NCBI GenBank assembly: GCA_964410865.1
Contig: CAYPIQ010000006.1
Location: 36,865-100,864 of the forward strand
From: an uncultured Spirochaetales bacterium
GTDB taxonomy: Bacteria > Spirochaetota > Spirochaetia > JAFGDJ01
DNA: 64,000 nt
Direction: 5' to 3'
Within the stretch, counting starts at the first letter, position 1. Every line of letters starts with the position of its first letter. Shown in pieces: positions 2,141 to 42,590 of the stretch. The notes beneath the pieces are model-generated. The model was not told the DNA's origin. It saw nothing but the letters and a program-made list of their open reading frames with translations, and did no database searches. The position numbers and the translations under genes are program-made.

Positions 2141-2450
2141 CTTTTCTTTTCACATAAGGCGATCTATACTTAAAAGGGAGTCGACCCTCGACCGCCGGCT
2201 CGGTAACCTGAAGGGGTGTCACTCCCAAATCTGAGCGCTCCGTCCCGGCGGTCCGCACGAAAGACTGGTCCCGGGCTATCGAACACGCCGGCTACCCGCG
2301 CTAAGCCGTTCCCCGTCCCTATTTTGGTCCCTTCTGGAAAAGGGAGGTGGTGAACATTGATACACCCTCCCGGCAATGGTATAGTTACAGGACCGTTAAA
2401 GTACATCACGGGATAACCGTCCGACGGTTGTCCCGGGGAAAGGAAGCACC

Positions 2451-4736
2451 ATGCACAGACTCTCAGATTTTTCCTGCGGCCACGCGAAACCGGTTCTCTT
2501 GATCATCTTCATTCTCACGCTGTTTTTCGCTTATTTCGCCGTTCACATCAGGGTAGACCCGGACGTAACCGACATGCTCCCCTCCGATGAGAAGATGGCC
2601 GAACTCGAAGACGTTGCCCATGAAGAAAGCGGCCTGGGAACCCTGGTGGTCGCGGTAGAGAGCGAGGACCCCTTCACCCTCGAGGGGCTGAAGGCTTTCT
2701 CCCGGGCCCTGGAGGAGATAGAGGCGCTGCCGGGGGTGCTTCCCGGTCTTCACCCCTTTAATTTTCTCTCGTTCGAGCGTGTCGGCACGAAGATACAAGT
2801 CAGCTATTTCACCGAAACCCGGACAGCCCCGACGAACGTCTCCGAACTCGAACGTTTCAAGACCCGGGTCCTCTCCGACCCCTTTGCCTCGACGGTGGTT
2901 GTATCGGAAAGCGGCAAGATGCTCGCGGCCATCTTTCCCCTGGCGGAGATAGCCGATCCGGGAGAGACTGAGAAGATCCGTACCATCCTTGACGGGCTCG
3001 AACCCTATTTCAAGGTGTACGCCACCGGCGACAACCTCTTTACCCAGCGGATGACCGCCTATATTTTCGACGACCTTACGACGCTGCTCATACTCTCGGG
3101 TGTCCTCCTGCTCCTGTTCTACTTCATCGGGTTCAGGTCACGGCGGGCCATGCTTCTTCCCCTGGTTCTCATCGCCGTAAGTATGGTCTGGACCCTGGGA
3201 TTCATGCATCTCCTGGGGTTCACCATTTCCATGGTCAACATCATCCTGCCACCCTTGCTTCTGACCATCGGGAGTTCCTATACCGTTCACGTTCTCAACG
3301 CCTTCTACCGGGAATCGAAGACCGAGATGGAGGCGCGGGCCTGGATAGCCGAGGCGGTCTCCCGGGTGTCCCAGACGATCTTCCTAGCCGGCCTGACCAC
3401 CATCGTCGGATTCTCCAGCCTTCTCATGACCTCCACCGAGCAGACCCGGCAGTTCGGCGTTTCCATGAGCTTCGGCATTTTCGTGTGTGTCTTCTTATCC
3501 CTTACCTTCCTGCCGGCGGCCCTTTCCTGCATGCCTTCTCCGAAGGAGTTCCAGAAAAAACACGTAACCGAGGGATTCATTACGCAGTGGATGGGACGCC
3601 TGAGTTACCGGGTGTTGAAGAGAAAAACTGTCCTGCTCGTCCTCTTCGCGGGCATGGTGGTTCTGTTCATACTGCTGCTGCCCGGCCTGCAGCACCAGAG
3701 CGATTACATGGGCTATTTCCCCGACGACGACCCGCTCATACAGGATACCAATTACATACTCACCAATCTCGGCAGCTCCCAGCAGGTATACGTCACCCTC
3801 GATGCCCCCGGGGGGCAAAAGAACTACTTTCTCAGGCCCGAGGTGCTCGAGCGGGTAAGCGCGTGGGAAGAACAGATGCTCTCGAACCCGGACGTTGTAT
3901 CGGTGAACTCCTTTACCGGCTACGTTCGGGGACTGAACAGGATCATGTTCGGTGAATCCAGGGTCCCGGAACAGAAGGGGCTCATTCTTACGCTGGCCCG
4001 CTACTTCAAGATCATGATGCACATGGATGAGAACAGCAGCCTGGCCTTCCTTTCGAACGACGACTTCTCCCGCATAACCTGCTCATTCAGGGTATTCAAC
4101 CACGAAAACGGGAAATACCTCACCGAAGAACCCCTGAGAAACTTAACGACTGCTATGCAGGCATCGATGGAAGAACTGCTCCCCGAAGAGATAACACCGG
4201 TAATCTGGGGCAATTCGCTGAAATTCCTGAGGCTCTCCGATATCCTGAACCGAGACCAGGCGACATCGACCCTCCTGTCCCTGGTCATCATTTTCCTGAT
4301 AGCCGCGGTGTTCTTCAGGTCTCTCCTGTACGGCGCCATCGCCCTTATTCCCATTCTCTGCGGCGTCATGATCAATTTCATCGTTATGGTATTGGCGGGC
4401 ATTCCCCTGGATATGATTACCCTGATGGTCTCCAGTGTTACCATCGGTGTCGGGGTGGACGACGCGATTCACTTCCTCATCCAGTTCAAACACCAGGTCT
4501 CGCTACACGGCCCCGACCGGGAAAAGGTGTTTCATGAAACCTTCATAGTAACCGGAAGACCAATACTTCTCACCACCGTCACCATCATGGGAGGGCTCAT
4601 CGTATTCGTCTTCAGCAACTTCCTGGCTATAACATACTTCGGTCTTCTGCTCTGTCTCACCCTCTCCTCTACCCTGCTGGGAACACTCTTTATTCTCCCC
4701 TCCTTCTGTTCCCTCTTTATAAAAAAAATGGTATAA
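2451..4736 (+). CDS. RND-superfamily exporter, MMPL/HAE3-like (COG1033-type), with two repeated bundles of transmembrane helices
   Basis: A 761-aa protein whose two halves each show an N-terminal transmembrane helix, a large loop and then a cluster of about 5 transmembrane helices ('LLLFYFIGFRSRRAMLLPLVLIAVSMVWTLGFMHLLGF...' and 'LIAAVFFRSLLYGAIALIPILCGVMINFIVMVLAGIPLDMITL...'), which is the typical MMPL/RND topology. Confidence 0.75.
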   Translation: MHRLSDFSCGHAKPVLLIIFILTLFFAYFAVHIRVDPDVTDMLPSDEKMAELEDVAHEESGLGTLVVAVESEDPFTLEGLKAFSRALEEIEALPGVLPGLHPFNFLSFERVGTKIQVSYFTETRTAPTNVSELERFKTRVLSDPFASTVVVSESGKMLAAIFPLAEIADPGETEKIRTILDGLEPYFKVYATGDNLFTQRMTAYIFDDLTTLLILSGVLLLLFYFIGFRSRRAMLLPLVLIAVSMVWTLGFMHLLGFTISMVNIILPPLLLTIGSSYTVHVLNAFYRESKTEMEARAWIAEAVSRVSQTIFLAGLTTIVGFSSLLMTSTEQTRQFGVSMSFGIFVCVFLSLTFLPAALSCMPSPKEFQKKHVTEGFITQWMGRLSYRVLKRKTVLLVLFAGMVVLFILLLPGLQHQSDYMGYFPDDDPLIQDTNYILTNLGSSQQVYVTLDAPGGQKNYFLRPEVLERVSAWEEQMLSNPDVVSVNSFTGYVRGLNRIMFGESRVPEQKGLILTLARYFKIMMHMDENSSLAFLSNDDFSRITCSFRVFNHENGKYLTEEPLRNLTTAMQASMEELLPEEITPVIWGNSLKFLRLSDILNRDQATSTLLSLVIIFLIAAVFFRSLLYGAIALIPILCGVMINFIVMVLAGIPLDMITLMVSSVTIGVGVDDAIHFLIQFKHQVSLHGPDREKVFHETFIVTGRPILLTTVTIMGGLIVFVFSNFLAITYFGLLLCLTLSSTLLGTLFILPSFCSLFIKKMV

Positions 4737-4775
4737 ATCGGACTATTGTGATAACATAATGATGGGGGTGCATAC

Positions 4776-5459
4776 ATGAGATTCCGCAGCAGAGTAGTAT
4801 ACAGGGCCCTACGAAATGTCATATCCGTTGCCGCGAGAATTTTCCTCCGGGTGAAGGTCCGGGGAACGGAAAACCGCCCGCCCGGGGCAAAGATATACGC
4901 GGTGAACCATCCGACGGAGATAGACATGTTCCCGGTGTTCGTGTTTACCCGGGACTTTATCCATACGATGATCAATCCATACATCTTCGATATTCCCGTG
5001 CTTCGAACCATCCTGCGCCTGACCGAGCAGATCAAGATCCGCAGGACGATTCGGAAACATGAAACAATCGAAGAGGCCCGGCGAATCCTCCAGCGGGGAG
5101 AAGCCCTTCTCATTGCGCCCCAGGGCGCACGGGTGAAATTCGACGAATACCCGAGACCCAAGAAGGGAGTCGTGCGTCTCGCCCTGGAAAACCGGGTGCC
5201 CATCATTCCGGTAGGTATAGGCATTCCCCGGAACAAGATCCGGATCAAGAAGATATTCTTCAAGGAAGAAAAAGTATACCGTAACGCCTACTACCCGAGG
5301 TTCAGGGCCCCCTACGGTATCGTTTTCGGCAAGCCTATCTCCTTCGAAGGCTATTACGGGAAAAAGATCGACAAGGAGACAATGCAAAACCTGGCAAACA
5401 AGGTCATGGATGTCATCTACAGACTCCAGGGCGAAGCTGAAGAAATGCTGTCGAGCTGA
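4776..5459 (+). CDS. Lysophospholipid / 1-acyl-glycerol-3-phosphate acyltransferase family protein (PlsC-like)
   Basis: An HX4D acyltransferase motif 'NHPTEID' lies near the N-terminus, with a second conserved block 'LLIAPQGARV'; the length is 227 aa. Confidence 0.65.
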   Translation: MRFRSRVVYRALRNVISVAARIFLRVKVRGTENRPPGAKIYAVNHPTEIDMFPVFVFTRDFIHTMINPYIFDIPVLRTILRLTEQIKIRRTIRKHETIEEARRILQRGEALLIAPQGARVKFDEYPRPKKGVVRLALENRVPIIPVGIGIPRNKIRIKKIFFKEEKVYRNAYYPRFRAPYGIVFGKPISFEGYYGKKIDKETMQNLANKVMDVIYRLQGEAEEMLSS

Positions 5460-5482
5460 ATTCCACGTTCCAAGGAACCACC

Positions 5483-6592
5483 ATGAAAGAAGATATTGTT
5501 ATTGTAGGCGCCGGCCTGTCGGGGGCGGTTGCGGCGCGTGCCTGCGCCGAAAAGGGCCGGAAGGTCCTGATCGTCGAGAGACTCGGGCACCTGGCCGGTC
5601 ACTGCTACGATTACCGGAACGACGCCGGTATTACCGTTCACACCTATGGACCCCACATATTTCACACCCTGGACAGGGATATCTGGCGGTACGTTCACCG
5701 TTTCGCGAATTTCAGACCCTACCAGCACAGGGTCATGAGCTACGTGGAAGGACGCCTGGTCCCTTTTCCCATTAACCTGGATACGATAAACATTCTCTTC
5801 GGGAAACACCTGGAGAGGGGAGATCTCGATACATTCCTGAAAAAAGAGGTCGCCGGATCTTCCTACAGCCCCGGGGCCGATAATTTTCGCGACGCCGTGG
5901 TATCCCAGGTCGGGGAGCAGCTCTACAGCCTTTTCTTCGAGAAGTACACGATAAAACAATGGAACCGGGATCCCCGGGAACTGTCGGCCGATATTGCACG
6001 GCGAATTCCCGTCCGGGACAACCGGGATACGCGATACTTTTCAGACCCCTACCAGGGCATTCCCGTCGGAGGGTACACGACTATGGTAAAAAACATGCTC
6101 GACCATCCTTCGATATCACTCCTTCTCGGGACGGACTATTTCGATATTCAGGACGAGTTGGACCCGGTACTGACGGTGTATACCGGTGAGCTGGACCGGT
6201 TCTTCAATTACGAATACGGAAAGCTGGAATACAGGTCCCTGGAACTCGAGTTCGAAACCCACGATACCGAAAGATACCAGGAAGCCGCGGTTATCAACTA
6301 CCCGAACGATTACGACTGGACAAGGATAACCGAGTTTAAATACTTCCTCGGGGAGTCCTCGGAGAAAACGACGATCTGCAAAGAGTATCCCAGGGATACC
6401 GGCGAGCCCTACTACGTGGTACTTTCCAAAGATAATATCGAGAGAAGAACAGCCTACATGAACCGTGTGGAAGCACTGGAAAAAGACCGGACCCACCTGT
6501 TTATCGGCAGGCTTGCCGAGTATACCTACTATAATATGGATGCCGTCATCAAGCGCAGCCTGGAGAAAACCGGGGCTTTTTTCTCCTCCTGA
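5483..6592 (+). CDS. glf: UDP-galactopyranose mutase
   Basis: An N-terminal FAD-binding motif 'IVIVGAGLSGAVAA' is followed by Glf-typical blocks 'GHCYDY', 'GPHIFHT', 'INYPNDYDWTRITEFKYF' and 'YYVVLSKDNIERRTAYMNRV'; the length is 369 aa. Confidence 0.9.
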   Translation: MKEDIVIVGAGLSGAVAARACAEKGRKVLIVERLGHLAGHCYDYRNDAGITVHTYGPHIFHTLDRDIWRYVHRFANFRPYQHRVMSYVEGRLVPFPINLDTINILFGKHLERGDLDTFLKKEVAGSSYSPGADNFRDAVVSQVGEQLYSLFFEKYTIKQWNRDPRELSADIARRIPVRDNRDTRYFSDPYQGIPVGGYTTMVKNMLDHPSISLLLGTDYFDIQDELDPVLTVYTGELDRFFNYEYGKLEYRSLELEFETHDTERYQEAAVINYPNDYDWTRITEFKYFLGESSEKTTICKEYPRDTGEPYYVVLSKDNIERRTAYMNRVEALEKDRTHLFIGRLAEYTYYNMDAVIKRSLEKTGAFFSS

Positions 6593-6605
6593 ACCTGTTT
6601 CTGGT

Positions 6606-7790
6606 TCAGCCCTTTCCGGCCCGGTCTTTCAGGATATCCCGGTACCTCAGGATCACCTCATCCGCTACCGTTTCCCAGGACCGGTAGAGGGTTTTCATTG
6701 CCCCGCGGCCGGCGGTTTCGACAAGACCCGGATTCTCGAGGCAGTGCGCGAGCACCGCGCTGAAGCCTTCCGGATCGTTCTCGGACAGAATGCCGTTTAC
6801 GCCGTCTTCAATGCCCTCGGCAGTTGTAGCACCCCGGATGAAGACACAGGGCAGCGAAAAGGCCGCGGCCTCCCGCATGACCAGGCTTGCCGTATCGTAG
6901 AGTGAAGGAAACATGAAAAGATACGCCAGGGCGTAAAGGGCCTTTATGATCTCCCTGTCGCGAACGACTCCGAGAAAACGCACCCTGTCTTCCATACCCA
7001 GGGATGAGACGTACTTCTTCATTTCAGGAAGGTCCGGGCCGGTACCGACGAAGAGCATGTTGACATTCTTCCCGCTCCTTTTCAGTATCGCAAGGGAGTC
7101 GAGCACAAGGGCGAGGTTTTTCCCCCACCGTTGCTGGCCGATGTAGAGAAACACCGGATCGTCGTTCTCCAGTCCGGCGAACTCTTTTCCCCTGTTCCTG
7201 TATGCCGTGTATTCCTCCAGTGCCGGTACAGCCATATCGGTGCCGTTTTCCATAACCTCGATATTCCCGGTATATCCGTATTCTTCGAGGACTTCTTTCG
7301 TTTTTTCACTGGGCACCCAGACATAATCTACCGCTTCGTAGTAGGCCACGACTTTCCTGAGGGCCGGTTCAACCAGTGAATCCATTTTAAGGACCTTCTT
7401 GAAATCTTCACGGTACTTGCTGTGAAAGGTGGATACTATGGGTATATTGCGTTTCTTGGCGATATTCAGCGCCAGGTGCCCGCTGACAAAGGGACAGTGG
7501 CTGTGCACTATGTCGAAGGGGATGTCCTTAAGACGCCGGCAGAAAGAGGGGCTCAGAAAAGGCACCCCCACACGGTAGGGCTTCATGGCCGGCAGGGTGA
7601 AAGAGGGAAAACGGAGCAGGTCAAAGGGGTCGTCGTCGACATATCCCGGGACCTTGAAACAGACCATGGTACTCTTCCCGTATTTCTTATCGAGCCAGTA
7701 GGCGTAATTTCTCGCTACCAGGGCTACACCGTCTATAACCGGTGGGTATGAATCGTTGAACTGTCCTATATGTAGACCCGGTGTACTCAT
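6606..7790 (-). CDS. GT4-family glycosyltransferase, monoglycosyl-diacylglycerol synthase-like
   Basis: The N-terminal 'FNDSYPPVIDGVA' and GT4 core resemble diacylglycerol glucosyl/galactosyltransferases, and the C-terminal half has the GT4 motif 'FLGVVRDREIIKALYALAYLFMFPSLYDTASLVMREAAAFSLPCV'. Confidence 0.7.
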   Translation of the reverse strand: MSTPGLHIGQFNDSYPPVIDGVALVARNYAYWLDKKYGKSTMVCFKVPGYVDDDPFDLLRFPSFTLPAMKPYRVGVPFLSPSFCRRLKDIPFDIVHSHCPFVSGHLALNIAKKRNIPIVSTFHSKYREDFKKVLKMDSLVEPALRKVVAYYEAVDYVWVPSEKTKEVLEEYGYTGNIEVMENGTDMAVPALEEYTAYRNRGKEFAGLENDDPVFLYIGQQRWGKNLALVLDSLAILKRSGKNVNMLFVGTGPDLPEMKKYVSSLGMEDRVRFLGVVRDREIIKALYALAYLFMFPSLYDTASLVMREAAAFSLPCVFIRGATTAEGIEDGVNGILSENDPEGFSAVLAHCLENPGLVETAGRGAMKTLYRSWETVADEVILRYRDILKDRAGKG

Positions 7791-8187
7791 TAGTTGCTCC
7801 TTGTGCCTGTCCCGGCGGGTATGGCACCCCGACCCTCACACATATCGGCGTGTTATTCCAGTTCATCCCGCCGCCGGGGAGGGATGGGCGGAAAACTCTT
7901 CGCGGCTCAGTTTGAGGATACGTCCTTTCTTCTCTTTACCAAGGTGTAGAAATGTGTTTTTTTCCATTGGTATGATTCTTCTAATAAATTTTATCCCTTT
8001 TCATTGTTTTTATCAACACCGGGAGTGACAGCCGGCGTGTATTTATGGACAGGAAAATTCTCGAGGCCGCTCATGTTACCGGGACCCTGCAATCGGGAAA
8101 AATAGCCGGGCATATCGCGGTTACGCATCGAAAAGGTACAGTATGAAACCCGGGGAAGGTGTCCAGAACAAACTCCGGTCCGATAAT

Positions 8188-9633
8188 CTACAGAAGGGGG
8201 ACGATTATTTTGCAGAGAGCGTTTCGAAGACGTAGGGGGAACGAAACACCCCGGAAAAACTCGGCGGTTATCTCCGTGCAGCTGGTACAGTCGAAGGTAA
8301 ATCGTTCATCCAGTTCGGAAACAAGAGACGCGTCGTACAGCACCGCGTCCATTTCGTAGTCGATCTGCAGGCTCCGGACGTCGAGGTTGCAGCTCCCTAC
8401 AGCCGCTATCTCCCCGTCGGCGGATATCGTCTTGGCATGGAGAAACCCGGCGGTATACCGGAATATCCTCACACCCGCTTCAAGGAGGCTGGGAAAATAA
8501 TTCTCCGCCACCCAGAAGGGTACGCGCTTGTCGGGAACGCCGGCGATCATCAGGCGGACATCCACCCCCCCGAGGGCGGCCGTTTCCATAGCGCTCAACA
8601 CGCTTTCATCGGGCACAAAATAGGGACTCTGGATAAATACCCTCCTGCGAGCCCCGGTCAACAACGTTATATAGAGCTTTCTCAAGATATCCCAGCGGGA
8701 ATCGGGCCCGGAACACACGATCTGGACCGGTACACCGGGTTCAACATGAAGAACCTCCGGGACCTCCAGTGTCTCTGTAACGGCCCCACCACTATTGCTC
8801 CAGTCCGCGAAAAAAACAGCTTCCATAACGGACACGCAGTGTCCCGTCATTCTCATATGGGTGTCCCGCCAGGTGGTGAAACGCCTGCCTCCCGTTATGT
8901 ATTCATCACCGACATTCATGCCGCCGGTATACCCGATCCTGCCGTCGATGACAACGATTTTTCTGTGGTTACGGTAATTGACGAACCGTCTGCGTACGAC
9001 ACTCCTGGGGTCGAGAAAATATCGGTGTTCAATGTTCGAAGCCTTCAGCGCCTTTCTGTATGCCCGGGAGAGGGTGAAGAAGCATCCCACTCCGTCGAAC
9101 AGGAGCTGCACCTCCACGCCTTCCCGGACCTTCGCCTCCAGGAGATCGAGGAGCCGACGGCCGAGATTGTCGGAACGCCAGATGAAATACTCCATGCGGA
9201 TCGAATGCCGGGCAGCCTCGATGTCGTTCAGAAGGCTTTCGAAGTGATCCGCCCCGGAATAATGGAAGACGACTTCGTTCCCCATGGTTATGATCGAATG
9301 CCCCCCGTTGAGCAGCAGAAGGAGGTTCCTTCGAACATTTCCGTCCGTCTCCAGTGCTCCTTCGGCGATGAACGAACTCTGGGCCCGATGGATCTCCGAA
9401 AAATGCTGGAGAATGAGGTCTTCCGGCAGGGTCTTAACGATCTTCGTCCCGTTCCTATCCAGGCCGAACAGGAGATACAGGAGAATTCCGGCATAGGGCA
9501 GGAAATAGATAGTCAGGAGCCAGGAGATGATAATCTGGCTCTGCCGTTTCTTCAGGAGAATCTGGACCGTAACGAGAACCACATAACAGATATAAACGAT
9601 CGAGAGTATTAAACCCAGTCTGCTTCCACTCAT
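8188..9633 (-). CDS. cls: Cardiolipin synthase (phospholipase D family, two HKD motifs)
   Basis: Two N-terminal transmembrane helices are followed by two HxK(x)4D motifs, 'HRKIVVIDGRIGYTGGMN' and 'HAKTISADGEIAAVGSCNLD'. Confidence 0.9.
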   Translation of the reverse strand: MSGSRLGLILSIVYICYVVLVTVQILLKKRQSQIIISWLLTIYFLPYAGILLYLLFGLDRNGTKIVKTLPEDLILQHFSEIHRAQSSFIAEGALETDGNVRRNLLLLLNGGHSIITMGNEVVFHYSGADHFESLLNDIEAARHSIRMEYFIWRSDNLGRRLLDLLEAKVREGVEVQLLFDGVGCFFTLSRAYRKALKASNIEHRYFLDPRSVVRRRFVNYRNHRKIVVIDGRIGYTGGMNVGDEYITGGRRFTTWRDTHMRMTGHCVSVMEAVFFADWSNSGGAVTETLEVPEVLHVEPGVPVQIVCSGPDSRWDILRKLYITLLTGARRRVFIQSPYFVPDESVLSAMETAALGGVDVRLMIAGVPDKRVPFWVAENYFPSLLEAGVRIFRYTAGFLHAKTISADGEIAAVGSCNLDVRSLQIDYEMDAVLYDASLVSELDERFTFDCTSCTEITAEFFRGVSFPLRLRNALCKIIVPLL

Positions 9634-9835: not shown

Positions 9836-10768
9836 CTATGATCGGCCGGCCCCGCATTCAGTTTTCGTCAAGCTTTCCACCACCGCCCGGTACGTATCAG
9901 TCAGGTCACCTAGGTTTTTTTCAAACAACCGCATCGACTCTTCATCCCGACTGAAGAAAATGCACGGCACCCTGTTCAGGGTATGGTTCCCGGTGGTGAT
10001 GTCCTCGGCGTTGCCGTGGTCGCTGACGATGAGCACGGCGTCCCGTTCCGGGTCGATTCTCTCAAGGACGCCGCTTAAAAAGCGGTTCAGTGTGTCCACG
10101 CAGGCGGCAATGTTTCCTCTGTCCCTTTTGTGACCGTACTTGTCCGTCATGAAATACTCGAAGATGATAAAATCGTACCCCTCCCAGGCGGCAAGGAGTC
10201 GTTTCGCGGCTTCTTCAGGGGTGATGATGGGGATGGGGAAGCCCCTCTGCTTTGCGAAATCACCGGTTATGTCGGCAAAAACAGCCCTTCCGGCGGTAAA
10301 ATCCTCCGGAAGTCGAAAGGGAACCTCCGCCGCCTTGATTGTAAGCGTGGTGGCGGAAAACATGTTCCTTCGGCGCCTGGCCCGAGCCTGGAAGTACTCC
10401 CTTGAATAAAGGTTTGCCGAGGTCACTTCTTTGCCGTGTTCCCGTAATACCCTCATGATGCTGTGTTCGGCTATAACCGGCAAAAGCCGCTGGTTGGGAA
10501 AGGCTGTTAGATGGAAGCCCAGCAGTTCCGGGGCGTTTATGCCTGTGAACAGGGAGGTTTGTCCGGTAGCCGACTGGGGAATACCGTCGACGCCCAGAAC
10601 GGCATCGGTGGGTATAATGACGCCACCGGGGAAACGAACGGGTTGGTCTATTTCGCAGAGGGATAAGCCGGTAAAGGGTTTGAACAACCCGGTTATCGGA
10701 TTTACCCCTTCTTTGCACCGGCCTAGGCCGATACCGTCTATAAAAAAGTAAAATAGTCGGCGTATCAT
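9836..10768 (-). CDS. Alkaline-phosphatase-superfamily metalloenzyme, short phosphopentomutase/iPGM-like
   Basis: The N-terminal 'FFIDGIGLG' matches DeoB 'LDSFGIGA', and the C-terminal metal-binding block 'VSDHGNAEDITTGNHTLNRVP' matches 'TADHG...HTREHIP'. The start overlaps the upstream DeoR gene stop (ATGA). Confidence 0.6.
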   Translation of the reverse strand: MIRRLFYFFIDGIGLGRCKEGVNPITGLFKPFTGLSLCEIDQPVRFPGGVIIPTDAVLGVDGIPQSATGQTSLFTGINAPELLGFHLTAFPNQRLLPVIAEHSIMRVLREHGKEVTSANLYSREYFQARARRRRNMFSATTLTIKAAEVPFRLPEDFTAGRAVFADITGDFAKQRGFPIPIITPEEAAKRLLAAWEGYDFIIFEYFMTDKYGHKRDRGNIAACVDTLNRFLSGVLERIDPERDAVLIVSDHGNAEDITTGNHTLNRVPCIFFSRDEESMRLFEKNLGDLTDTYRAVVESLTKTECGAGRS

Positions 10769-11571
10769 GAGGTAAAGTCCGGTTCGCCGCTGCCGGGATA
10801 CAGGTCGTAACCGTCCTGGTCCGCCGCGATGACTGCCACCCCGGCATCGGAGAATGCGCGGATAGTGTCAGGATTTACGGATTTTCCGGTTATGATAAAG
10901 TCGACCTCTTCCAGTGTGGCGAGTTTCCTCAGGGCTGTGCGGCCGAGCTTTTTGTGGTCGGCACAGGATATCATTTTTCGTTTGACCGCCGCTTCTTCCA
11001 TGGACCTTTCGCTTAAGCCGGTTTCAGCGGATACCCCGTCCAGGGAAAGAAACAGTCTGTCGGCATGGATGCCTGAAAAAAAGTCTTCCGCCGGAGGACC
11101 GGTACAGGAGTCCCCGGGCCCATGGACTATGCCCCCGGAAAGAATTACCGTAATGGACGGACGACCTTTCAGGATGCCCGCCACCTTCAGGGATGAAGTA
11201 ATAACCGTAATATGACTTTTTTTCGTTAGTTCCTCCGCCATGGGTATACTGACCAAACCCGAATCCAGGATAATCGTCTCGCCGCTCTGAACCCTGGAAG
11301 CGGCCGCCGCCGCCATGGACAGGTGCTGCGAAGTTATTTCGGAGACCGGCTCCGCACTCTGACCTGTTTCCTCTTTTAATACGGCTCCACCCTCTGTCCT
11401 GGGACAGAACCCCTGCTCCTCCAGGCGGATAAGGTCTCGCCGGATGGTATTCTCCGATATATCCGGAAGGCGACTGAACTCCGATACCCGGACGGCACCC
11501 CTTTCCAGAAGAATAGATCGTATCTTTTTGTGGCGTTCGAGCTGGAGGGGTTTGTGTTCATCCGCCGGCAT
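10765..11571 (-). CDS. DeoR-family transcriptional regulator (HTH plus sugar-phosphate-binding C-domain)
   Basis: A DeoR HTH 'IRSILLERGAVRVSEFSRLPDISENTIRRDLIRLEEQG' begins at an internal Met (CAT at 11569-11571 on the + strand). The ORF-track extension up to 11889 has no homologous content and is treated as non-coding. Confidence 0.8.
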   Translation of the reverse strand: MPADEHKPLQLERHKKIRSILLERGAVRVSEFSRLPDISENTIRRDLIRLEEQGFCPRTEGGAVLKEETGQSAEPVSEITSQHLSMAAAAASRVQSGETIILDSGLVSIPMAEELTKKSHITVITSSLKVAGILKGRPSITVILSGGIVHGPGDSCTGPPAEDFFSGIHADRLFLSLDGVSAETGLSERSMEEAAVKRKMISCADHKKLGRTALRKLATLEEVDFIITGKSVNPDTIRAFSDAGVAVIAADQDGYDLYPGSGEPDFTS

Positions 11572-11745
11572 ACAAGGAGTATAGGCTAAAAGGGTAAAAT
11601 GGAGCAAGGAGTATGGTGAAACATGATGCAATGGAGTGATAAATAATGAAAAATGCTTGATAAATGCTACTATATATTTGTTCATAATCACCATTAAAGG
11701 AGGAATGACCATTATGAGGTCCTCGCCGGCGTCCGACCGGATATC

Positions 11746-12342
11746 GTGCTCTGGCGAAACAGCGAATATATCAAGGATAACGAGATTAGCCTGGAGGCGA
11801 TGGATAAGGCTCTGGAGGATCTTCGGCGACGCGTGGGTGTTTCGACGGATAGGTATAATGATATTTTCCGGGCATATGCCCGGGATCATTTTTTACCTCT
11901 GCCCGGGGGTGCTTACCTGCGCCGGGATGAGCTGCAGGTAGTACCCGGAGTATTGTTTTTGTGGTCCTTCGGATGGAAGCTGAACGTTCTGTCCGCCGCC
12001 GAAGAGGAAGCGGTGACCCTGGGGTTAAGGGTTACCTTACTCAAGACGGTTCTCATGGGCCTGGCCGCGTATATAACTTCCCTCTGCGTTTCCGCCGTGG
12101 GGATTATCGCCTGGGTGGGGCTGATTATTCCCCATATTGCCAGGATGCTGATCGGTCCGGATCATCGGCGCCTTATACCCGCGGCTTCCCTCCTGGGAGC
12201 CGTGTTTATAGTATTCTGCGACACCCTTACCAGGGTACTTACCGACGGAGAGATACTAATTAGTATAATTACCGCGGTTACCGGCGCCCCGTATCTCTTC
12301 TTCCTGATACGAACCAACAGGAGAATCGGTTTTGCTTCATGA
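11746..12342 (+). pseudogene. C-terminal fragment of a FecCD-family (BtuC/FepD-like) ABC permease
   Basis: From about nt 11950 the translation matches the last third of FecCD permeases ('LNVLSAAEEEAVTLGLRV', 'GPDHRRLIPAASLLGAVFIVFCDTLTRVL', 'GAPYLFFLIR'). The N-terminal two thirds, an ATPase and a binding protein are absent, and the region upstream of about 11950 does not look permease-like. Confidence 0.55.
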
Positions 12343-36434: not shown

Positions 36435-38153
36435 ATGAGTGAAAGAATACGTGAATTAATTGAAGAGATTTACGGGAAAGAACGGTCCGATGAGGTGTAC
36501 CGGCGGCTCATGGCGGGGATTAAAGAGCGGCTCGAGTCTATCGAACCTCCGGCGGTAAGAGGATCGGGGGATCTACCCTTGAGTGAGGAGGATGCCTTCG
36601 TCATCACCTACGGAGACCAGTTCAGGAAAGATAAGGCCGAGCCTCTGAAGGTCCTGGGCGAATTTGCGGGTCGGTTTCTTCAGGGGATTGTGTCCGGAAT
36701 CCATATCCTTCCGTTCTTTCCATACACCTCCGACGACGGTTTTTCCGTTTCCGATTACCGGCAGGTGAACCCGGCATGGGGCACCTGGGATGATATCCGG
36801 AGAATCGGCACAGAATTCAGATTGATGAGCGACCTGGTTTTGAACCACTGTTCGGTCTCCAACGAGTGGTTTAAGCGGTTTCTGAAAGGTGAAGGCAAGT
36901 ACGCCGATTATTTTATCACCGCGGATAAAGACGAAGACCTCTCCATGGTCGCCCGGCCGCGGGCCCTCCCGCTGCTCACCCCCTTCGAGACCCCCGGGAA
37001 AACCCTGTACGTGTGGACGACCTTCAGCGCGGATCAGGTGGATCTGAATTTCGGTTCTCCGGAGGTATTGATCGAGATGATAGACATATTCCTGTTCCAC
37101 GTCCGGAACGGAATACAGGTTATACGACTTGATGCCATTGCCTATCTATGGAAGGAACCCGGTCATTCCTGCATCCATCATCCGAAAACCCACGCGGTGG
37201 TAAAACTCTTCCGGGCCGTGGTGGACGAGTTTGTTCCCTGGGTGGTTATCATCACGGAAACCAATGTTCCCCACAGAGAAAATGTTTCCTATTTCGGAAA
37301 CGGAACAGATGAAGCCCATATGGTCTATCAGTTTGCCCTGCCGCCCTTGGTGCTGGACGCCTTTTTGAGGGAAGACGCCGGGCACTTGAGGGATTGGGCT
37401 GCAACCCTGCCACCACCCGACGGCCGGACAACGTATTTTAATTTCCTCGCTTCCCACGACGGCGTCGGTCTGCTCCCGGCCCACGGTATCCTGTCCGAAG
37501 AAGAACTGGAAGGGCTCATCAACAGCGTCAGGAACAGGGGAGGGCTTATCTCCTACAAGGCCGGTGCTTCCGGGAATATCCCCTACGAGATGAATATAAA
37601 CTACTGTGATGCCGTGGCCGAAACAACCTTACCCGTGGAAACCCGCGTACGAAAATTCCTCGCCTCCCAGGCCTTTCTGCTCATTATGCCCGGTGTGCCC
37701 GGAATCTACATTCATAGTATCATCGGGTCTGGAAACTGGAGGGAAGGTGTAGAAATAACCGGAATGAACAGGACCATCAATCGTCGGAAGCTCGATCTCG
37801 AAGAAACCTCCGCTGAACTGGAACGCAAAGGCAGCCTTCGAAACCTGGTGTATACGGGGTATGCCGCCATGCTCGAGGTCCGACGGACCCGGAGGGCCTT
37901 CCATCCCGCCGCGTCCTTCAGGATACTGCCGGCTGCAGGTCCGCTGTTTGCGGCGGAACGCGTCTCCCCGGAGGGCTCTGAGCGGCTGGTATGCGTGGTG
38001 AACACCTCCGGCGGCCGGGTGGAATACCCGATGCCGGCAGATTTCAAAGTGACGGCTGTGGCGGATATTCTTACCCTGCGGGAGATCCCACTATCCGCCG
38101 GGGGCACTGTTTCAGTGCCTCCCTACGGTGTACTGTGGCTGGAGGCTTTATAA
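36435..38153 (+). CDS. GH13 subfamily-18 glucoside phosphorylase (sucrose phosphorylase / glucosylglycerate phosphorylase-like)
   Basis: The blocks 'ILPFFPYTSDDGFSVSDYRQVNPAWGTWDD', 'DLVLNH' and 'RLDAIAYLWK' are present; the length is 572 aa. Confidence 0.8.
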   Translation: MSERIRELIEEIYGKERSDEVYRRLMAGIKERLESIEPPAVRGSGDLPLSEEDAFVITYGDQFRKDKAEPLKVLGEFAGRFLQGIVSGIHILPFFPYTSDDGFSVSDYRQVNPAWGTWDDIRRIGTEFRLMSDLVLNHCSVSNEWFKRFLKGEGKYADYFITADKDEDLSMVARPRALPLLTPFETPGKTLYVWTTFSADQVDLNFGSPEVLIEMIDIFLFHVRNGIQVIRLDAIAYLWKEPGHSCIHHPKTHAVVKLFRAVVDEFVPWVVIITETNVPHRENVSYFGNGTDEAHMVYQFALPPLVLDAFLREDAGHLRDWAATLPPPDGRTTYFNFLASHDGVGLLPAHGILSEEELEGLINSVRNRGGLISYKAGASGNIPYEMNINYCDAVAETTLPVETRVRKFLASQAFLLIMPGVPGIYIHSIIGSGNWREGVEITGMNRTINRRKLDLEETSAELERKGSLRNLVYTGYAAMLEVRRTRRAFHPAASFRILPAAGPLFAAERVSPEGSERLVCVVNTSGGRVEYPMPADFKVTAVADILTLREIPLSAGGTVSVPPYGVLWLEAL

Positions 38154-38204: not shown

Positions 38205-39479
38205 GTGAACGGAACAGGCAGACAGAGAAACATTGGATTTATATCCACCAGGTTTTCCGGGACCGACGGCGTAACCCTGGAGACAGCCAAATGGGAGCAA
38301 ATCTTTACGGAGTTCGGTCACCGCTGTTTCCGTTTCGCCGGGCTCCTGGACACCGACAACGGCCGATCCATGACGGTACCGGAGGCATTCTTCGGACATC
38401 CGGACAATCTCGCGCTCAATGAGCAGATCTTCGGCAGAAAGGTGAGGAGCCGGGAGGTCACCGACCGAATTTACTCCGTAAAGGAATACCTGAAGGAAAG
38501 GCTTTACGAGTTTATCCGATCCTTCTCGATAGACCTGCTGGTGGCCGAGAACTGCCTGGCTATTCCCATGCATATCCCCCTGGGGATCGCCCTGACGGAA
38601 GTCATCGCGGAAACGGGAATACCCGCCATTGGGCATCACCACGATTTCTGGTGGGAACGCAGTCGGTTTCTTATCAATGCCGTTCCTGAAATTATCGAGC
38701 AGTGCTTTCCACCCCGTCTACCGACCGTCCACCATGTGGTGATTAACTCGATGGTACAGTCCGAACTCGCCTCCCGCCGGGGCATGTCCGCTTCGGTTAT
38801 CTACAATGTCTTCGATTTCGACGCCGGGAAACCGGTACCCCGGGAAACGAACGAAGAATTCCGGAAGGATTTCGGATTCGATCCGGAGGATATCCTGATT
38901 CTACAGCCCACCAGGGTTGTGGCAAGAAAGGGGATCGAGCAGGCATTGCACCTGGTACAACAGTTGAAGCTGCCGAGGGCCAAGCTCCTGATCAGCCACT
39001 CCGTCGGTGACGAAGGCGACGCCTACCTGGACTGGATACTCGATATGGCCCGGCAGCAGCAGATAGACGTACATTTGCTCTACAACCGCCTGGACGAGAC
39101 CCGTCGGGTGGATGATAAGGGAAACCGCCTTTACTCACTCTGGGACGTATACCCCCATGTCGACCTGGTGACCTACCCCAGTCTTTATGAAGGATTCGGC
39201 AATGCCTTCCTGGAGGCGGTCTACTTTCAAAAACCCATCCTGGTAAACCGATACTCCGTCTATATAGTCGATATCGAACCGAGGGGGTTCGAGGTGGTTT
39301 CCATGGACGGATTCCTGACGCCGGATACAATCAACGCCGTTCGAAGAGTTCTGTCGGACCCGGAAAAACAGAGACGGATGACCGAACACAATTTCCAAAT
39401 TGCCCGGCGCTTTTTCTCTTACAGTGTGCTTAGAAAGAGACTCCAGAACATACTCTACGATTTTTTCGGAGGTCCGTAA
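38205..39479 (+). CDS. GT4-family (retaining) glycosyltransferase, uncharacterised subfamily
   Basis: N-terminal 'IGFISTRFSGTDGVTLE' and the C-terminal E-x7-E motif 'YPSLYEGFGNAFLEAVYFQKPILV' are present; the length is 424 aa. It is about 45% identical by eye to the 60814..62115 product. Confidence 0.65.
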   Translation: MNGTGRQRNIGFISTRFSGTDGVTLETAKWEQIFTEFGHRCFRFAGLLDTDNGRSMTVPEAFFGHPDNLALNEQIFGRKVRSREVTDRIYSVKEYLKERLYEFIRSFSIDLLVAENCLAIPMHIPLGIALTEVIAETGIPAIGHHHDFWWERSRFLINAVPEIIEQCFPPRLPTVHHVVINSMVQSELASRRGMSASVIYNVFDFDAGKPVPRETNEEFRKDFGFDPEDILILQPTRVVARKGIEQALHLVQQLKLPRAKLLISHSVGDEGDAYLDWILDMARQQQIDVHLLYNRLDETRRVDDKGNRLYSLWDVYPHVDLVTYPSLYEGFGNAFLEAVYFQKPILVNRYSVYIVDIEPRGFEVVSMDGFLTPDTINAVRRVLSDPEKQRRMTEHNFQIARRFFSYSVLRKRLQNILYDFFGGP

Positions 39480-40330
39480 TGATCAGGCCTGACAAGAAAC
39501 GCATTATCACGTTTATTCGAGACTGTATCGAAGCCTACGATTACGGCGGTGTCGTTATCGGGATCAGCGGTGGTATAGATTCCACGGTAACCGGGGCTCT
39601 CCTGAAGGAAGCCCTGGGTCCGGAAAGAGTTTTCGGCCTCCTGATGCCGGAACGGGATTCGTCGAAGGACACCCTCCGGGACTCGAGGCTGGTATGCGAC
39701 TGGCTGGGGATTACATACAAGGTCCAACCGGTTACTCCCCTGGTCCGGCGGCTGGGGGTGTACCGGATGAAACCGCCGGCATGGCTGTTCCCCAGGAAGA
39801 TCCAGGAGCGCTATGTAGAGAAGCAGTGGTTCAATGTGGAGAACCCCTACATAAGCGACCTGAAAACCTCGGGGGGAGAGAAAAACAGGAAAAACCTAGC
39901 CTACTACCGCACAAAGCACCGGTTCAGGATGCTCCTTTTGTATTATGAAGCGGAAAAACGGGGGTATGCCGTGTCGGGCGCAACCAACAGGACGGAGAAA
40001 AAAACGGGGTTTTATATCAAGTGGGGCGACGACTCGAGCGATATCGAGCCCATTCTTCATTTATACAAAACCCAGGTATATGCCCTGGCGGAGGAGCTCG
40101 GGGTGCCCCACGCCATTGCCGAGAAAAAACCGAGCCCCGACATAGCTCCCGGTATTACGGATGAGTTTGCCCTCGGCATGGACTACGAAACCCTGGACAG
40201 GATACTGGAAAAGCTGGACACCGGCACCTCCCTGTCGGATGAACAACCCGAAAGGGTCGAACGGGTCAGGGACATTCTGGAAGCGGCGAAGTACCGGGAT
40301 GTCAGGAACCTCAACATGGGGGGCGAATAA
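39479..40330 (+). CDS. nadE: NH3-dependent NAD+ synthetase
   Basis: The PP-loop 'GISGGIDS' and C-terminal NadE blocks are present; the start overlaps the upstream stop (TAATG). Confidence 0.85.
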   Translation: MIRPDKKRIITFIRDCIEAYDYGGVVIGISGGIDSTVTGALLKEALGPERVFGLLMPERDSSKDTLRDSRLVCDWLGITYKVQPVTPLVRRLGVYRMKPPAWLFPRKIQERYVEKQWFNVENPYISDLKTSGGEKNRKNLAYYRTKHRFRMLLLYYEAEKRGYAVSGATNRTEKKTGFYIKWGDDSSDIEPILHLYKTQVYALAEELGVPHAIAEKKPSPDIAPGITDEFALGMDYETLDRILEKLDTGTSLSDEQPERVERVRDILEAAKYRDVRNLNMGGE

Positions 40331-40337
40331 AAACATA

Positions 40338-41672
40338 ATGAAGAAACTGCTGTTTTTCCTTTTGCTCCCGGCAGTCACACTCTCGGTTTCAGCCCTGGAA
40401 GGGACGGAAGGTAAGAAAGCCCTGGTTCTTTCCGGCGGGGGAGGGAAAGGTGCGTATGAGATCGGGGTGTGGAAGGCTCTGTCTGATCTGGATGTCGATA
40501 TAGGCGGTGTGTACGGGGCTTCCGTGGGTTCCATAAACGGAGCTGCCGTCATCATGGATGATTTCGAACGTGTGCGGGATCTCTGGCTCGATACCTCCTA
40601 TCTGTCCATTATGAATATTTCTCAGCCCTTTAGAATGCTGCTGCAGGGGAATTTCGAAGAACTGTCGCTGAATGATTACTTTACTATACTGAAGGATCTC
40701 CGAAAGAGTGGGGGCATCGATGTCTCTCCCCTTGAGAGCCTGTTAACGTCGATCATATCCGAGGATACCATCCGCTCTTCCAATGTCGATTACGGGCTGG
40801 TAGTGTTTTCTGTTTCGAGCCTGGAACCGATGAGCCTCTATATCGAACAGATTCCCCGGGGAAAACTGGTGGATTATATTCTTGCCAGTGCCAATTTTCC
40901 ACTCTTCAAGCGGCATGAGCTGGGAGGGGAGAAGTATATCGACGGTGGTGTATACAGTAACATCCCGATACATATGGCGGTGGACAGGGGATTTAAGGAT
41001 ATTATCGTTGTCGAGGTCGGGATTCCGACTCCCGTGGATATCCTGAACTCTCTCACCCGGGATAGCGGCGGTGCGGTCCGGTTTACCCGTATCAAGCCCC
41101 GGGAGCAGTACGGTACGGTCCTGACCTTCGAGAGGGAGGTTTCCCGGAAGTACCTACTCGAAGGATACCTGGATACCATGAAGGTATACGGAAGGCTTCA
41201 GGGAAACAATTACTACATCTACGGATCGGAGGATGTGCTGCGGCGGATGTTCGCCTGCTTGAACATGGATGAACGGTCCGAAGCGCTCTCGATTCTCGAT
41301 GTCAAAGATACGGAAGACCGGGACCCCGGGGATGTCTTTTCGGAGGTTGTTGTTCCCGTCTTCGAAGGCGCGCTCCTGGACATATTTCCCGGCGGATCGG
41401 AGGACGTCAGCCTTGTTCTGCTGGAACGCCTGGCCGGGGGAACGGGGGTGGAACCCCTGGCGCTATATACCCGGGAGGAACTCCTCGAGGCCGTTCTTGA
41501 ACATGCTGAAGAAGGAAACTACGAGTCCGCCATTGCAGAAGAGCTGATTTCGCTGCGGTTCTCCCGCATTCTCGATTTTCTCAGATTCCTGGACGCCCAC
41601 TGTGAAACCGCCCCCCCGGTTCCCGAAGGATACGCGGATTTCAGGGAAGGATACTCCGGGCTCCTGGAATAA
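40338..41672 (+). CDS. Patatin-like phospholipase, secreted
   Basis: A signal peptide 'MKKLLFFLLLPAVTLSVSA' is followed by the oxyanion 'LSGGGGKGAYEIG', the nucleophile elbow 'GASVGS' and the catalytic-Asp region 'IDGGVYSNIP'. Confidence 0.8.
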   Translation: MKKLLFFLLLPAVTLSVSALEGTEGKKALVLSGGGGKGAYEIGVWKALSDLDVDIGGVYGASVGSINGAAVIMDDFERVRDLWLDTSYLSIMNISQPFRMLLQGNFEELSLNDYFTILKDLRKSGGIDVSPLESLLTSIISEDTIRSSNVDYGLVVFSVSSLEPMSLYIEQIPRGKLVDYILASANFPLFKRHELGGEKYIDGGVYSNIPIHMAVDRGFKDIIVVEVGIPTPVDILNSLTRDSGGAVRFTRIKPREQYGTVLTFEREVSRKYLLEGYLDTMKVYGRLQGNNYYIYGSEDVLRRMFACLNMDERSEALSILDVKDTEDRDPGDVFSEVVVPVFEGALLDIFPGGSEDVSLVLLERLAGGTGVEPLALYTREELLEAVLEHAEEGNYESAIAEELISLRFSRILDFLRFLDAHCETAPPVPEGYADFREGYSGLLE

Positions 41673-41741: not shown

Positions 41742-42590
41742 CTATTCGTTCTCTTTATTTCCCATTACCGCCACGAGCAACAGCCCAGGGCCGGTATGGA
41801 CACCGATGACCGGGGTCATCTTTGATACATATATTGTCTGCCCGGGAAGCATGGCCTGAAGGCGATCGGTAAGCTGTGCCGCCTCCTCCGGACAGGCAGT
41901 ATGTTCCACCGCGATATAATCGATGGAAGAGTATCCGCCGACAAAATCGCACAGCTTGTCTACCGCTTTGGCCCGGGACCTGGTTCTTCCGGCCGGGGCG
42001 ACGATCCCGTCCTTCAATGTTATGAGGGGGTTTATCTTCAAGACCGACCCCATAAAAGCCTGGGCTGCTCCGATACGCCCACCCCTGTGGAGATATTCCA
42101 GGGTATCGAAGGTGGAGAGAAAATCCACCCGTTTTTTGGCCGCCTCCGCGATACGGATGCATTCGTCCAGAGGTGCGCCTTCCCGCGCAGCCTCAGCCGC
42201 CTTCATGACTATAAACCCTTCCGTCATGGTGGCTGTTTCCGAATCCAACACTTCTATCCGGCATTCTTTTTTTACCAGGTCTCTCCCGTTAAGGGCTACA
42301 TCGCAGGTCCCGCTCAACCTGGATGATAGAAGAATAACCAGAATTTCGTCGGTTTCATCGGAAAGGCGGTTGTACGCTTCGGCAAAGGCTCCGGGAGGGG
42401 GTGTGGATGTGACGGGAAAATCTTTGCAGTCCTGAAGTTTTTGGTAGAATTCCTCGTTTGATATATCGATACCGTCCTTGAATTCCTCTTCTCCGAAACG
42501 CAGGATAAGAGGAATGACGGTAATCCCGAGGTCCTCCGCAATAGTGGGCGGGAGGTCCGCGACTGAATCGGTGACAATTTTTACCGCCAT
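41742..42590 (-). CDS. degV: DegV-family fatty-acid-binding protein
   Basis: The N-terminal 'KIVTDSVADLP' and the DegV fold are present; it is paired with YloV as in many Firmicutes and spirochaetes. Confidence 0.85.
   Translation of the reverse strand: MAVKIVTDSVADLPPTIAEDLGITVIPLILRFGEEEFKDGIDISNEEFYQKLQDCKDFPVTSTPPPGAFAEAYNRLSDETDEILVILLSSRLSGTCDVALNGRDLVKKECRIEVLDSETATMTEGFIVMKAAEAAREGAPLDECIRIAEAAKKRVDFLSTFDTLEYLHRGGRIGAAQAFMGSVLKINPLITLKDGIVAPAGRTRSRAKAVDKLCDFVGGYSSIDYIAVEHTACPEEAAQLTDRLQAMLPGQTIYVSKMTPVIGVHTGPGLLLVAVMGNKENE

Follow-up and report, generated by a model that had tools for sequence, protein, structure and literature searches.

A glf-adjoining GT4 glycosyltransferase gene in Spirochaetota and its possible part in a galactofuranose membrane glycolipid

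Mammals lack galactofuranose (Galf), and the pathway that makes it is a target for drugs and diagnostics. The activated sugar, UDP-Galf, is the thermodynamically disfavoured product of UDP-galactopyranose mutase (Glf), and pairs of glf with a transferase gene are known as glf-glfT2 in mycobacteria and glf-wbbI in E. coli K-12. Simple membrane glycoglycerolipids with beta-Galf on diacylglycerol (DAG), dependent on glf, occur in Mycoplasma mycoides, Acholeplasma axanthum and Streptococcus mitis, and in Mycoplasma a GT2 enzyme is presumed to be the synthase. In S. mitis the linkage is beta and the synthase was left unidentified; a 2021 preprint on this species states that no galactofuranosyl-DAG synthase had by then been described (10.1101/2021.05.06.441962), and none published since was found in our literature search. 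Few galactofuranosyltransferases have been characterised, and the two with solved structures, GlfT2 of family GT2 and GfsA of family GT31, are both inverting GT-A enzymes (PMC11538602). Here, a glf gene and an adjoining gene for a GT4 glycosyltransferase are analysed together with their neighbours in a 64,000-nucleotide stretch of DNA, hereafter the window, from an uncultured Spirochaetales bacterium (contig CAYPIQ010000006.1). An earlier note on this DNA had described a membrane-lipid island of five genes, for an MMPL-type transporter, a PlsC-type acyltransferase (AT), Glf, the GT4 enzyme and a cardiolipin synthase (cls). All five were recovered as exact open reading frames (ORFs), and Pfam and NCBIfam scores place each in the family given there.

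The reading that we favour, with a probability of roughly one half, is that Glf and the GT4 enzyme together make a Galf membrane glycolipid, with involvement of the MMPL protein. The glf gene (5483..6592, + strand, 369 aa) scored 341.2 bits on the curated equivalog model TIGR00031, above its cut-off of 303.75, and its product combines an N-terminal FAD-binding Rossmann domain (NAD_binding_8, 66.9 bits) with a GLF domain (Pfam, 228 bits). Its assignment as a UDP-galactopyranose mutase is therefore sound, and with it, by family membership, the expectation that it makes UDP-Galf. The best matches to this Glf were only 64-65% identical and came from Spirochaetales metagenome-assembled genomes (MAGs); for GT4 and AT, too, the closest relatives are Spirochaetales or Spirochaetia MAGs, and the host is probably an uncultured anaerobe of Spirochaetota. 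The GT4 gene (6606..7790, - strand, 394 aa) converges on glf, with 13 bp between the two stop codons.

To place this pair in context, 80 genomic loci around Glf relatives were surveyed, and the window proteins were mapped onto them. In about 20 Spirochaetota loci, glf has a GT4 orthologue of 42-50% identity as its immediate same-strand neighbour, at intergenic distances ranging from an overlap up to about 110 bp. Some loci have GT4 before glf (L003, L007, L010, L020, L021, L033, L035, L048 and L053), others glf before GT4 (L012, L016, L018, L026-L028, L038, L041, L045 and L068), and the convergent arrangement of the window is a third. From group to group the pair has different flanks, for the most part housekeeping genes (redoxin, topoisomerase, formate-THF ligase, deoxynucleoside kinase, DUF218, ABC transporters). 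Neither a polysaccharide cluster nor another glycosyltransferase was identified among the annotated neighbours. Retention of the glf-GT4 pair through three gene orders and changing flanks is a signature of functional coupling, and this link within the island is strongly conserved.

Other genomes show what kind of gene may stand beside glf. A WbbI-like galactofuranosyltransferase, with 207 bits on PRK09814, adjoins glf in Fervidobacterium, which indicates that the gene beside glf can be the user of its product. A UgtP-like GT28 gene (MGDG_synth) abuts glf in four loci, one of them from a Treponema MAG and one from a Ruminiclostridium MAG (L009:1824-2978, L023:6856-8004, L039:417-1556 and L058:1316-2503). 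In NCBIfam, these proteins match diglucosyl-DAG synthase best (PRK13609; 95-124 bits, cut-off 500). Judged by sequence, this UgtP-like inverting DAG glycosyltransferase is a candidate for the beta-Galf-DAG synthase that is still being sought. In Thermotogaceae MAGs, a flippase-like LPG_synthase_TM/TIGR00374 protein is encoded directly after glf (L029:1191-2192 and five other loci), and one of these bacteria (L005) has an MMPL gene about 1 kb upstream of glf as well.

The association was also examined from the side of the transferase. This reverse test took in 80 metagenome loci, selected because they carry GT4 orthologues with 42-51% identity. A glf gene was present in just one of them, a duplicate of L020. 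Of the 79 loci without glf, 48 extended 700 bp or more to either side of GT4, so that a neighbouring glf would have been seen, and 29 ended too close to GT4, on one side or both, for a decision. GT4 stood alone among unrelated genes in some loci (SHMT, DUF512 radical-SAM, PHO4), and in many others it lay near a distant GT4 paralogue, a metallophosphoesterase and an alpha-amylase gene. By sequence, the window enzyme is a member of a widespread stand-alone family, and a family-wide role in Galf metabolism is ruled out. With the reverse test negative, the search turned to a split within the family, between members with threonine and members with asparagine at position 300.

In GT4 structures, the EX7E loop lines the donor sugar. 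The family equivalent of this motif in the window enzyme, read from the translation, is D299-T-A-S-L-V-M-R-E307 (6870..6896, - strand), which aligns with the E-S-F-G...E (EX7E) loop of BshA; position 300 lies in that loop, and the Thr300 codon occupies 6891-6893. Out of about 100 conserved columns, position 300 was the only one that set all three glf-linked clades apart from the rest, with Thr in 22 of 22 sequences of these clades and Asn in all 77 sequences that are not glf-linked. Where the flanks could be assessed, Thr300 genes were adjacent to glf in 20 cases and non-adjacent in 2 (L150 and L172), and Asn300 genes were adjacent in 1 (L048) and non-adjacent in 47.

The threonine appears to have arisen repeatedly. 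Bootstrapped neighbour-joining trees gave at least three separate Thr300 lineages: the Treponemataceae Thr clade was monophyletic in 95% of the replicates, the two spirochaete Thr groups formed one exclusive clade in none, and a low-GC Thr clade (P0059, P0053, P0086 and L085) grouped with Asn-type relatives, apart from the spirochaete clades, in 100%. Genomes of Treponemataceae carry both types, and it is the YDTSS paralogue that abuts glf, with the YDNAP paralogue 0.5-3.7 kb upstream on the other strand. A prospective test was also possible. The GT4 sequence P0059 was picked on its Thr motif alone, and its contig (L173, 38% GC) proved to have glf 17 bp downstream, which confirmed the residue-based prediction; the closest sequences to P0059, with 65% identity, carry Asn and do not adjoin glf.

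The membership of the GT4 enzyme in its family is clear. Pfam recognised Glyco_transf_4 and Glycos_transf_1 domains (79.8 and 83 bits), and the two Rossmann-like domains with the D299-x7-E307 pair mark a retaining GT-B enzyme, in which the first acidic residue is Asp and not Glu. An AF2 model with a pLDDT of 92.9 gave MshA, BshA and PimB' as its top Foldseek folds in the PDB; this model-based search confirms GT4 and is silent on acceptor or donor. The best NCBIfam match was alpha-monoglucosyl-DAG synthase (Mgs, NF049988), which aligned residues 7-389 and was the sole curated model to align the protein in full length, N-terminal domain included. The score was 110.9 bits against a cut-off of 400, so the enzyme falls outside the Mgs equivalog, and other members of the family scored 64-98 bits. 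The likeness to monoglycosyl-DAG synthases seen earlier therefore holds for the best model and the aligned N-terminus, and does not extend to membership. Further models followed at 80 bits (GlcN-PG synthase), 76 (MshA) and 73 (IagA/BgsA), and exopolysaccharide glycosyltransferase models reached at most 57 bits. As the earlier note had required of a lipid enzyme, GT4 does not side with polysaccharide transferases, lipid and small-molecule models ranking first in what is a comparison of model scores and not a phylogeny. It had no match to PRK09814 or to GT2 models and so belongs to neither of these known galactofuranosyltransferase groups, and no transmembrane segment was found in it. Many of its homologues are labelled 1,2-diacylglycerol 3-alpha-glucosyltransferase at JGI, an automatic name. 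In one locus (L150), a Thr-type GT4 gene is followed after 38 bp by a gene for a flippase-like LPG_synthase_TM protein (L150:3026-3700). From these gene neighbours and the best curated model, we infer a lipid acceptor.

The first gene of the locus (2451..4736, + strand, 761 aa) encodes an MMPL/HAE3-like RND membrane transporter. Pfam MMPL was found in two stretches at 126.6 bits, above the cut-off, and the hydropathy profile is consistent with the RND layout of two large loops. HAE3 (TIGR00921) was its best NCBIfam model with 221 bits, below the cut-off of 351.9, and the HpnN model gave 117 bits against 752. No periplasmic or outer-membrane partner genes of the transporter were seen. Homologues adjoin GT4 or glf in other lineages as well. 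In L089, 34 bp separate a Thr-type GT4 gene from the 3' end of an MMPL gene upstream on the same strand (37% identity to residues 559-755 of the window protein, E 2e-39), and L020 has the order GT4, glf, MMPL. These arrangements, which differ from that of the window, give comparative support to the RND transporter as a partner of GT4, and they bear out the transporter gene as a neighbour of GT4 or glf in two further lineages.

The second gene (4776..5459, + strand) encodes a small soluble acyltransferase of 227 aa with a pI of 10.5. It belongs to the LPLAT/PlsC superfamily (PF01553, 73.8 bits), and its HX4D motif is intact as HPTEID at 4908-4925. It stays under the cut-offs of TIGR00530 (58.4 bits vs 102.95) and PRK15018 (26.9 bits vs 501), and its second-best NCBIfam match is an Aas-type acyl-ACP phospholipid acyltransferase. 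A sequence search of the PDB returned PlsC (5kym) as the sole match, a weak one with an E-value of 4e-4, and no detectable match to PatA. The subfamily is small and rare: a profile search found 8 clusters at E<=1e-30 among 1.84 billion representatives, and a word-indexed homologue search only 5 proteins. In four of seven independent contexts, the AT homologue lies beside an MMPL gene, in two orientations. The two genes are co-directional in L162 and in L170/L171, where the gap is 41 bp and the MMPL protein is 40% identical to that of the window, and they are convergent in L166/L167 and L168, which come from Spirochaetales MAGs. The contexts without an adjacent MMPL gene are L164, L165 and L169. 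This recurrence in other genomes gives comparative support to AT as the partner of the RND protein, and its inclusion in the group is upheld on that ground.

Taken together, these components suggest the following pathway. Glf, by its family membership, converts UDP-galactopyranose to UDP-galactofuranose. The Thr-type GT4 enzyme, a peripheral retaining GT-B protein related to Mgs, would then transfer Galf from UDP-Galf with retention to DAG or a glycosyl-DAG at the inner face of the cytoplasmic membrane, and the product would be an alpha-Galf lipid. By analogy with MmpL3 and HpnN, the HAE3/MMPL-type RND protein might extract this glycolipid from the cytoplasmic membrane and move it outward. The LPLAT partner might acylate the same or a related lipid or re-acylate its lyso form, by analogy with PatA-PimA and LplT-Aas. 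A bolder form of this proposal, which we put forward as a tentative and rather doubtful one, holds that the Thr300 branch is the first retaining (alpha-) galactofuranosyltransferase and the first identified Galf-DAG synthase. The change from Asn to Thr would be a switch from pyranose to furanose, acquired at least three times, and the product, possibly acylated by the LPLAT enzyme, would be carried by the HAE3-type RND protein towards the outer membrane.

Several findings weigh against a Galf glycolipid as the product of this locus, besides the near absence of glf from the reverse test. The GT4 of L048 adjoins glf yet is Asn-type. In the closest relative of the window (L162, 77% nucleotide identity), MMPL and AT converge on GT4 and cls with glf cleanly absent, and the stop codons of AT and GT4 are only a few bases apart; the GT4 of L162 has Met at position 300, on a contig with many frameshifts. 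In L172, the DUF218-GT4-ABC synteny of L033/L035 is retained and the Thr300 GT4 is intact, and no glf stands at the site. In these two lineages, glf is therefore a clean single-gene presence or absence at one site (window 5460-6627 vs L162:11164-11178; L172:2320-2470 vs L033/L035). It has been gained or lost, and GT4 can be maintained with no glf beside it, provided that the gene is not located elsewhere in those genomes. The links between MMPL and GT4 come from short contigs, possibly of related lineages. With Mgs scores of 64-111 bits against a cut-off of 400, a DAG acceptor is suggested and not established, and the window GT4 is mildly acidic, with no clear membrane-binding signal from pI and amphipathic-helix heuristics. 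GT4 enzymes are retaining, unlike the structurally characterised galactofuranosyltransferases, and a retaining enzyme would not give the beta linkage of S. mitis Galf-DAG. In our literature search, no report of a GT4 galactofuranosyltransferase or of a spirochaete Galf lipid was found. Finally, Thr or Asn at position 300 could equally well reflect specificity for Gal or Glc in the pyranose form. The earlier proposal of synthesis and export of a Galf glycolipid is partly supported: it is strengthened by the recurring glf-GT4 and MMPL links, and weakened by a DAG acceptor that is only presumed, by a cls gene linked just in the window and L162, and by the missing glf of L162 and L172.

The main rival explanation, which we regard as unlikely though worth serious weight, takes up the pyranose reading of position 300: GT4 would be an ordinary alpha-glycosyl-DAG synthase with a pyranose donor, UDP-Galp or UDP-Glc, and Thr300 would mark Gal and not Glc. 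Glf might then share the UDP-Gal pool and feed an unlinked galactofuranosyltransferase that adds a second lipid sugar or builds a polysaccharide. Treponema and Borrelia have alpha-galactosyl-DAG as a major lipid, made in Borrelia by the GT4 protein BB0454, which fits such a donor. The retaining fold shared with MshA, BshA and PimB', the silence of the literature on Galf transfer by GT4 enzymes, the wide spread of the family without glf, and the intact Thr-type genes of L172 and L150 that stand without an adjacent glf all agree with it. It accounts poorly for the tight glf-GT4 unit of most loci, which have no other transferase within several kb, and for the absence of galE alongside the pair. 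In Fervidobacterium, moreover, the gene beside glf is a recognisable galactofuranosyltransferase, as it is in the classical glf-glfT2 and glf-wbbI pairs, and the change from Asn to Thr arose at least three times, each time with glf.

It is improbable, in our estimate, that glf and GT4 cooperate on an acceptor other than DAG, namely a soluble metabolite as for BshA and MshA, a polyprenol-linked primer or a protein, with MMPL, AT and cls as neighbours from lipid housekeeping that are unrelated to them. Such an acceptor would suit an Mgs score far under the cut-off, the nearest solved structures, which are small-molecule GT4 enzymes, and the mildly acidic protein lacking a clear membrane-binding signal; for other members of the family, the BshA and GlcN-PG synthase models score like Mgs. 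The N-terminal acceptor domain of the window enzyme is aligned by the Mgs model only, however, and the gene neighbours point to lipid. MMPL adjoins GT4 or glf in L089, in L020 and in the lineage of the window and L162, flippase-like proteins follow the Thr-type GT4 of L150 and the glf of Thermotogaceae (with MMPL too in L005), and a UgtP-like lipid glycosyltransferase adjoins glf in other genomes. A chance juxtaposition of five unrelated envelope genes, with the adjacencies as inherited synteny of no functional meaning, would agree with the origin of most glf-adjacent cases in one phylum, with a complete five-gene set seen only in the window among the loci compared and with a cls linked only there and in the nearest relative, but it is very improbable in view of a glf-GT4 pair that outlasts three gene orders and changing flanks, a low-GC lineage (L173) nested in non-linked relatives that has both the pair and the Thr change, and MMPL-AT and MMPL-GT4 pairs that recur in differing orientations.

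The layout of the locus departs from what the title of the earlier note suggests. MMPL, AT and glf are co-directional on the + strand, with gaps of 39 bp (MMPL/AT) and 23 bp (AT/glf), and this unit converges on GT4 and cls, both on the - strand. A promoter-like site, TTGATA-17-TATAGT with a TG extension (2357..2385, + strand; 10 of 12 positions matched), sits upstream of the MMPL-AT-glf unit in a 370-bp intergenic gap. The spacing from cls to GT4 is 397 bp and includes a second such site, TTGATA-17-TAAAAT (7988..8016, - strand), which suggests transcription of GT4 from a promoter of its own and not from that of cls; the number of promoter-like sites across the region was not above chance, and both are candidates only. 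The five-gene region is thus not one operon but a junction of conserved two-gene modules. Because pairs recur in other genomes, the grouping as an island exceeds chance for four of the five genes, cls being the one for which it does not. The island is not a compositional one: GC and GC3 of glf are those of the neighbouring genes, and horizontal transfer of glf was rejected on this ground. Rfam found no structured RNAs within the window.

The cls gene (8188..9633, - strand, 481 aa) passes its equivalog model, TIGR04265, with 426.9 bits against a cut-off of 290. PLDc_2 in two stretches, giving two PLD domains, a PLDc_N domain and two N-terminal transmembrane segments identify the product as a ClsA-type cardiolipin synthase. 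It adjoins GT4 only in the window and in L162, and with no conservation beyond these two, its place as a flank of the group was given up and its membership in the pathway rejected. It is probably an ordinary phospholipid enzyme that is a neighbour and not part of the pathway.

Several other features were observed around these genes. The gap between cls and GT4 contains a 34-codon ORF, MEKNTFLHLGKEKKGRILKLSREEFSAHPSPAAG (7862-7966, - strand), which by eye resembles the start of a TetR-type regulator and could be what is left of a gene; in L168, a TetR_N gene stands ahead of the AT-MMPL pair. In the Spirochaetales contigs L166-L168 and L162, the AT-MMPL pair is flanked by genes for an FGGY glycerol kinase and a GlpA-like DAO/Fer2_BFD dehydrogenase with DUF1667, and NuoE/NuoF-like genes also occur at these flanks. 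Beyond cls, at 9836-11889 on the - strand of the window, the gene of a DeoR-family regulator lengthened at its N-terminus by about 115 aa (10765-11889) shares 4 bp with that of a 310-aa protein (9836-10768), whose match to the metalloenzyme (phosphopentomutase/iPGM) superfamily is confined to its C-terminal half. About 30 kb off, further lipid genes encode a patatin-like phospholipase (40161-41672, + strand), DegV/FakB (41742-42590, - strand) and FakA (42604-44274, - strand), the latter two forming a fatty-acid kinase system for the incorporation of exogenous fatty acids. An alpha-amylase-family protein (36435-38153, + strand) is followed by a 424-aa Glycos_transf_1 protein (38205-39479, + strand), and this second glycosyltransferase of the window proved unrelated to the GT4 family studied here.

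The kinds of component, Glf, GT4, RND, LPLAT and Cls, are already known, as are Galf-DAG lipids in Mollicutes and S. mitis. New here would be a glf-coupled branch of the MGS-like GT4 family with a recurrent one-residue signature, the link of this branch to an RND transporter and its occurrence in Spirochaetota. The lipid had been called unusual at the outset; this would apply to the enzyme family and the host phylum, which would be new, and not to Galf-DAG as such, which is known from Mycoplasma, Acholeplasma and S. mitis. The comparison provides candidates for Galf-DAG synthases from sequence, the Thr-type GT4 enzymes here and UgtP-like GT28 enzymes elsewhere, and the hypothesis of one-residue specificity at position 300 is open to a simple swap of Thr and Asn. 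Many spirochaetes have no lipopolysaccharide and expose glycolipids, whose route to the outer membrane is unclear; the recurrent RND link suggests such a route. If true, the Thr300/HAE3 reading would amount to an envelope glycolipid pathway of Spirochaetota that had not been recognised before.

Among the known systems, Mgs comes closest to the GT4 enzyme. Related GT4 lipid glycosyltransferases include alMGS and alDGS of Acholeplasma, Spr0982/CpoA of S. pneumoniae and BB0454 of Borrelia. The GT4 GT-B fold and a full-length alignment with the best score are shared with Mgs, the genes of both stand alone among housekeeping genes, and the two GT4 paralogues per locus in Treponemataceae recall MGS/DGS pairs. 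Unlike Mgs, the window enzyme reaches 111 bits of the required 400, has D-x7-E instead of E-x7-E and is linked to glf. With the established pairs of glf and a galactofuranosyltransferase, the locus shares a glf directly beside the enzyme that would use its product, and it differs from them in that the partner is a retaining GT4 GT-B protein with no similarity to those transferases; the WbbI type in particular is a separate sequence family (NCBIfam PRK09814).

The lipid proposed for the window resembles the Galf-DAG lipids of Mycoplasma, Acholeplasma and S. mitis in being a simple Galf glycoglycerolipid. Two differences are evident: GT4 would give an alpha linkage in place of the beta linkage of S. 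mitis, and the host is a diderm, spirochaete-like bacterium, unlike the Mollicutes and S. mitis. The transporter shares with MmpL3 of the MmpL family and with HpnN (HAE3) its MMPL and sterol-sensing-type domains, HAE3 as best model and a gene linked to genes of lipid synthesis, and it differs in scoring under both the HAE3 (221 vs 352) and the HpnN (117 vs 752) cut-offs. Acyltransferase partners are familiar in lipid glycosylation and transport, as PatA with PimA in the formation of acyl-PIM, TmaT with CmpL1 and LplT with Aas. As in these partnerships, the gene for the LPLAT acyltransferase of the window adjoins that of a lipid transporter, with a GT4 gene close by; unlike PatA, to which the acyltransferase has no sequence match in the PDB, it belongs to a small and rare subfamily.

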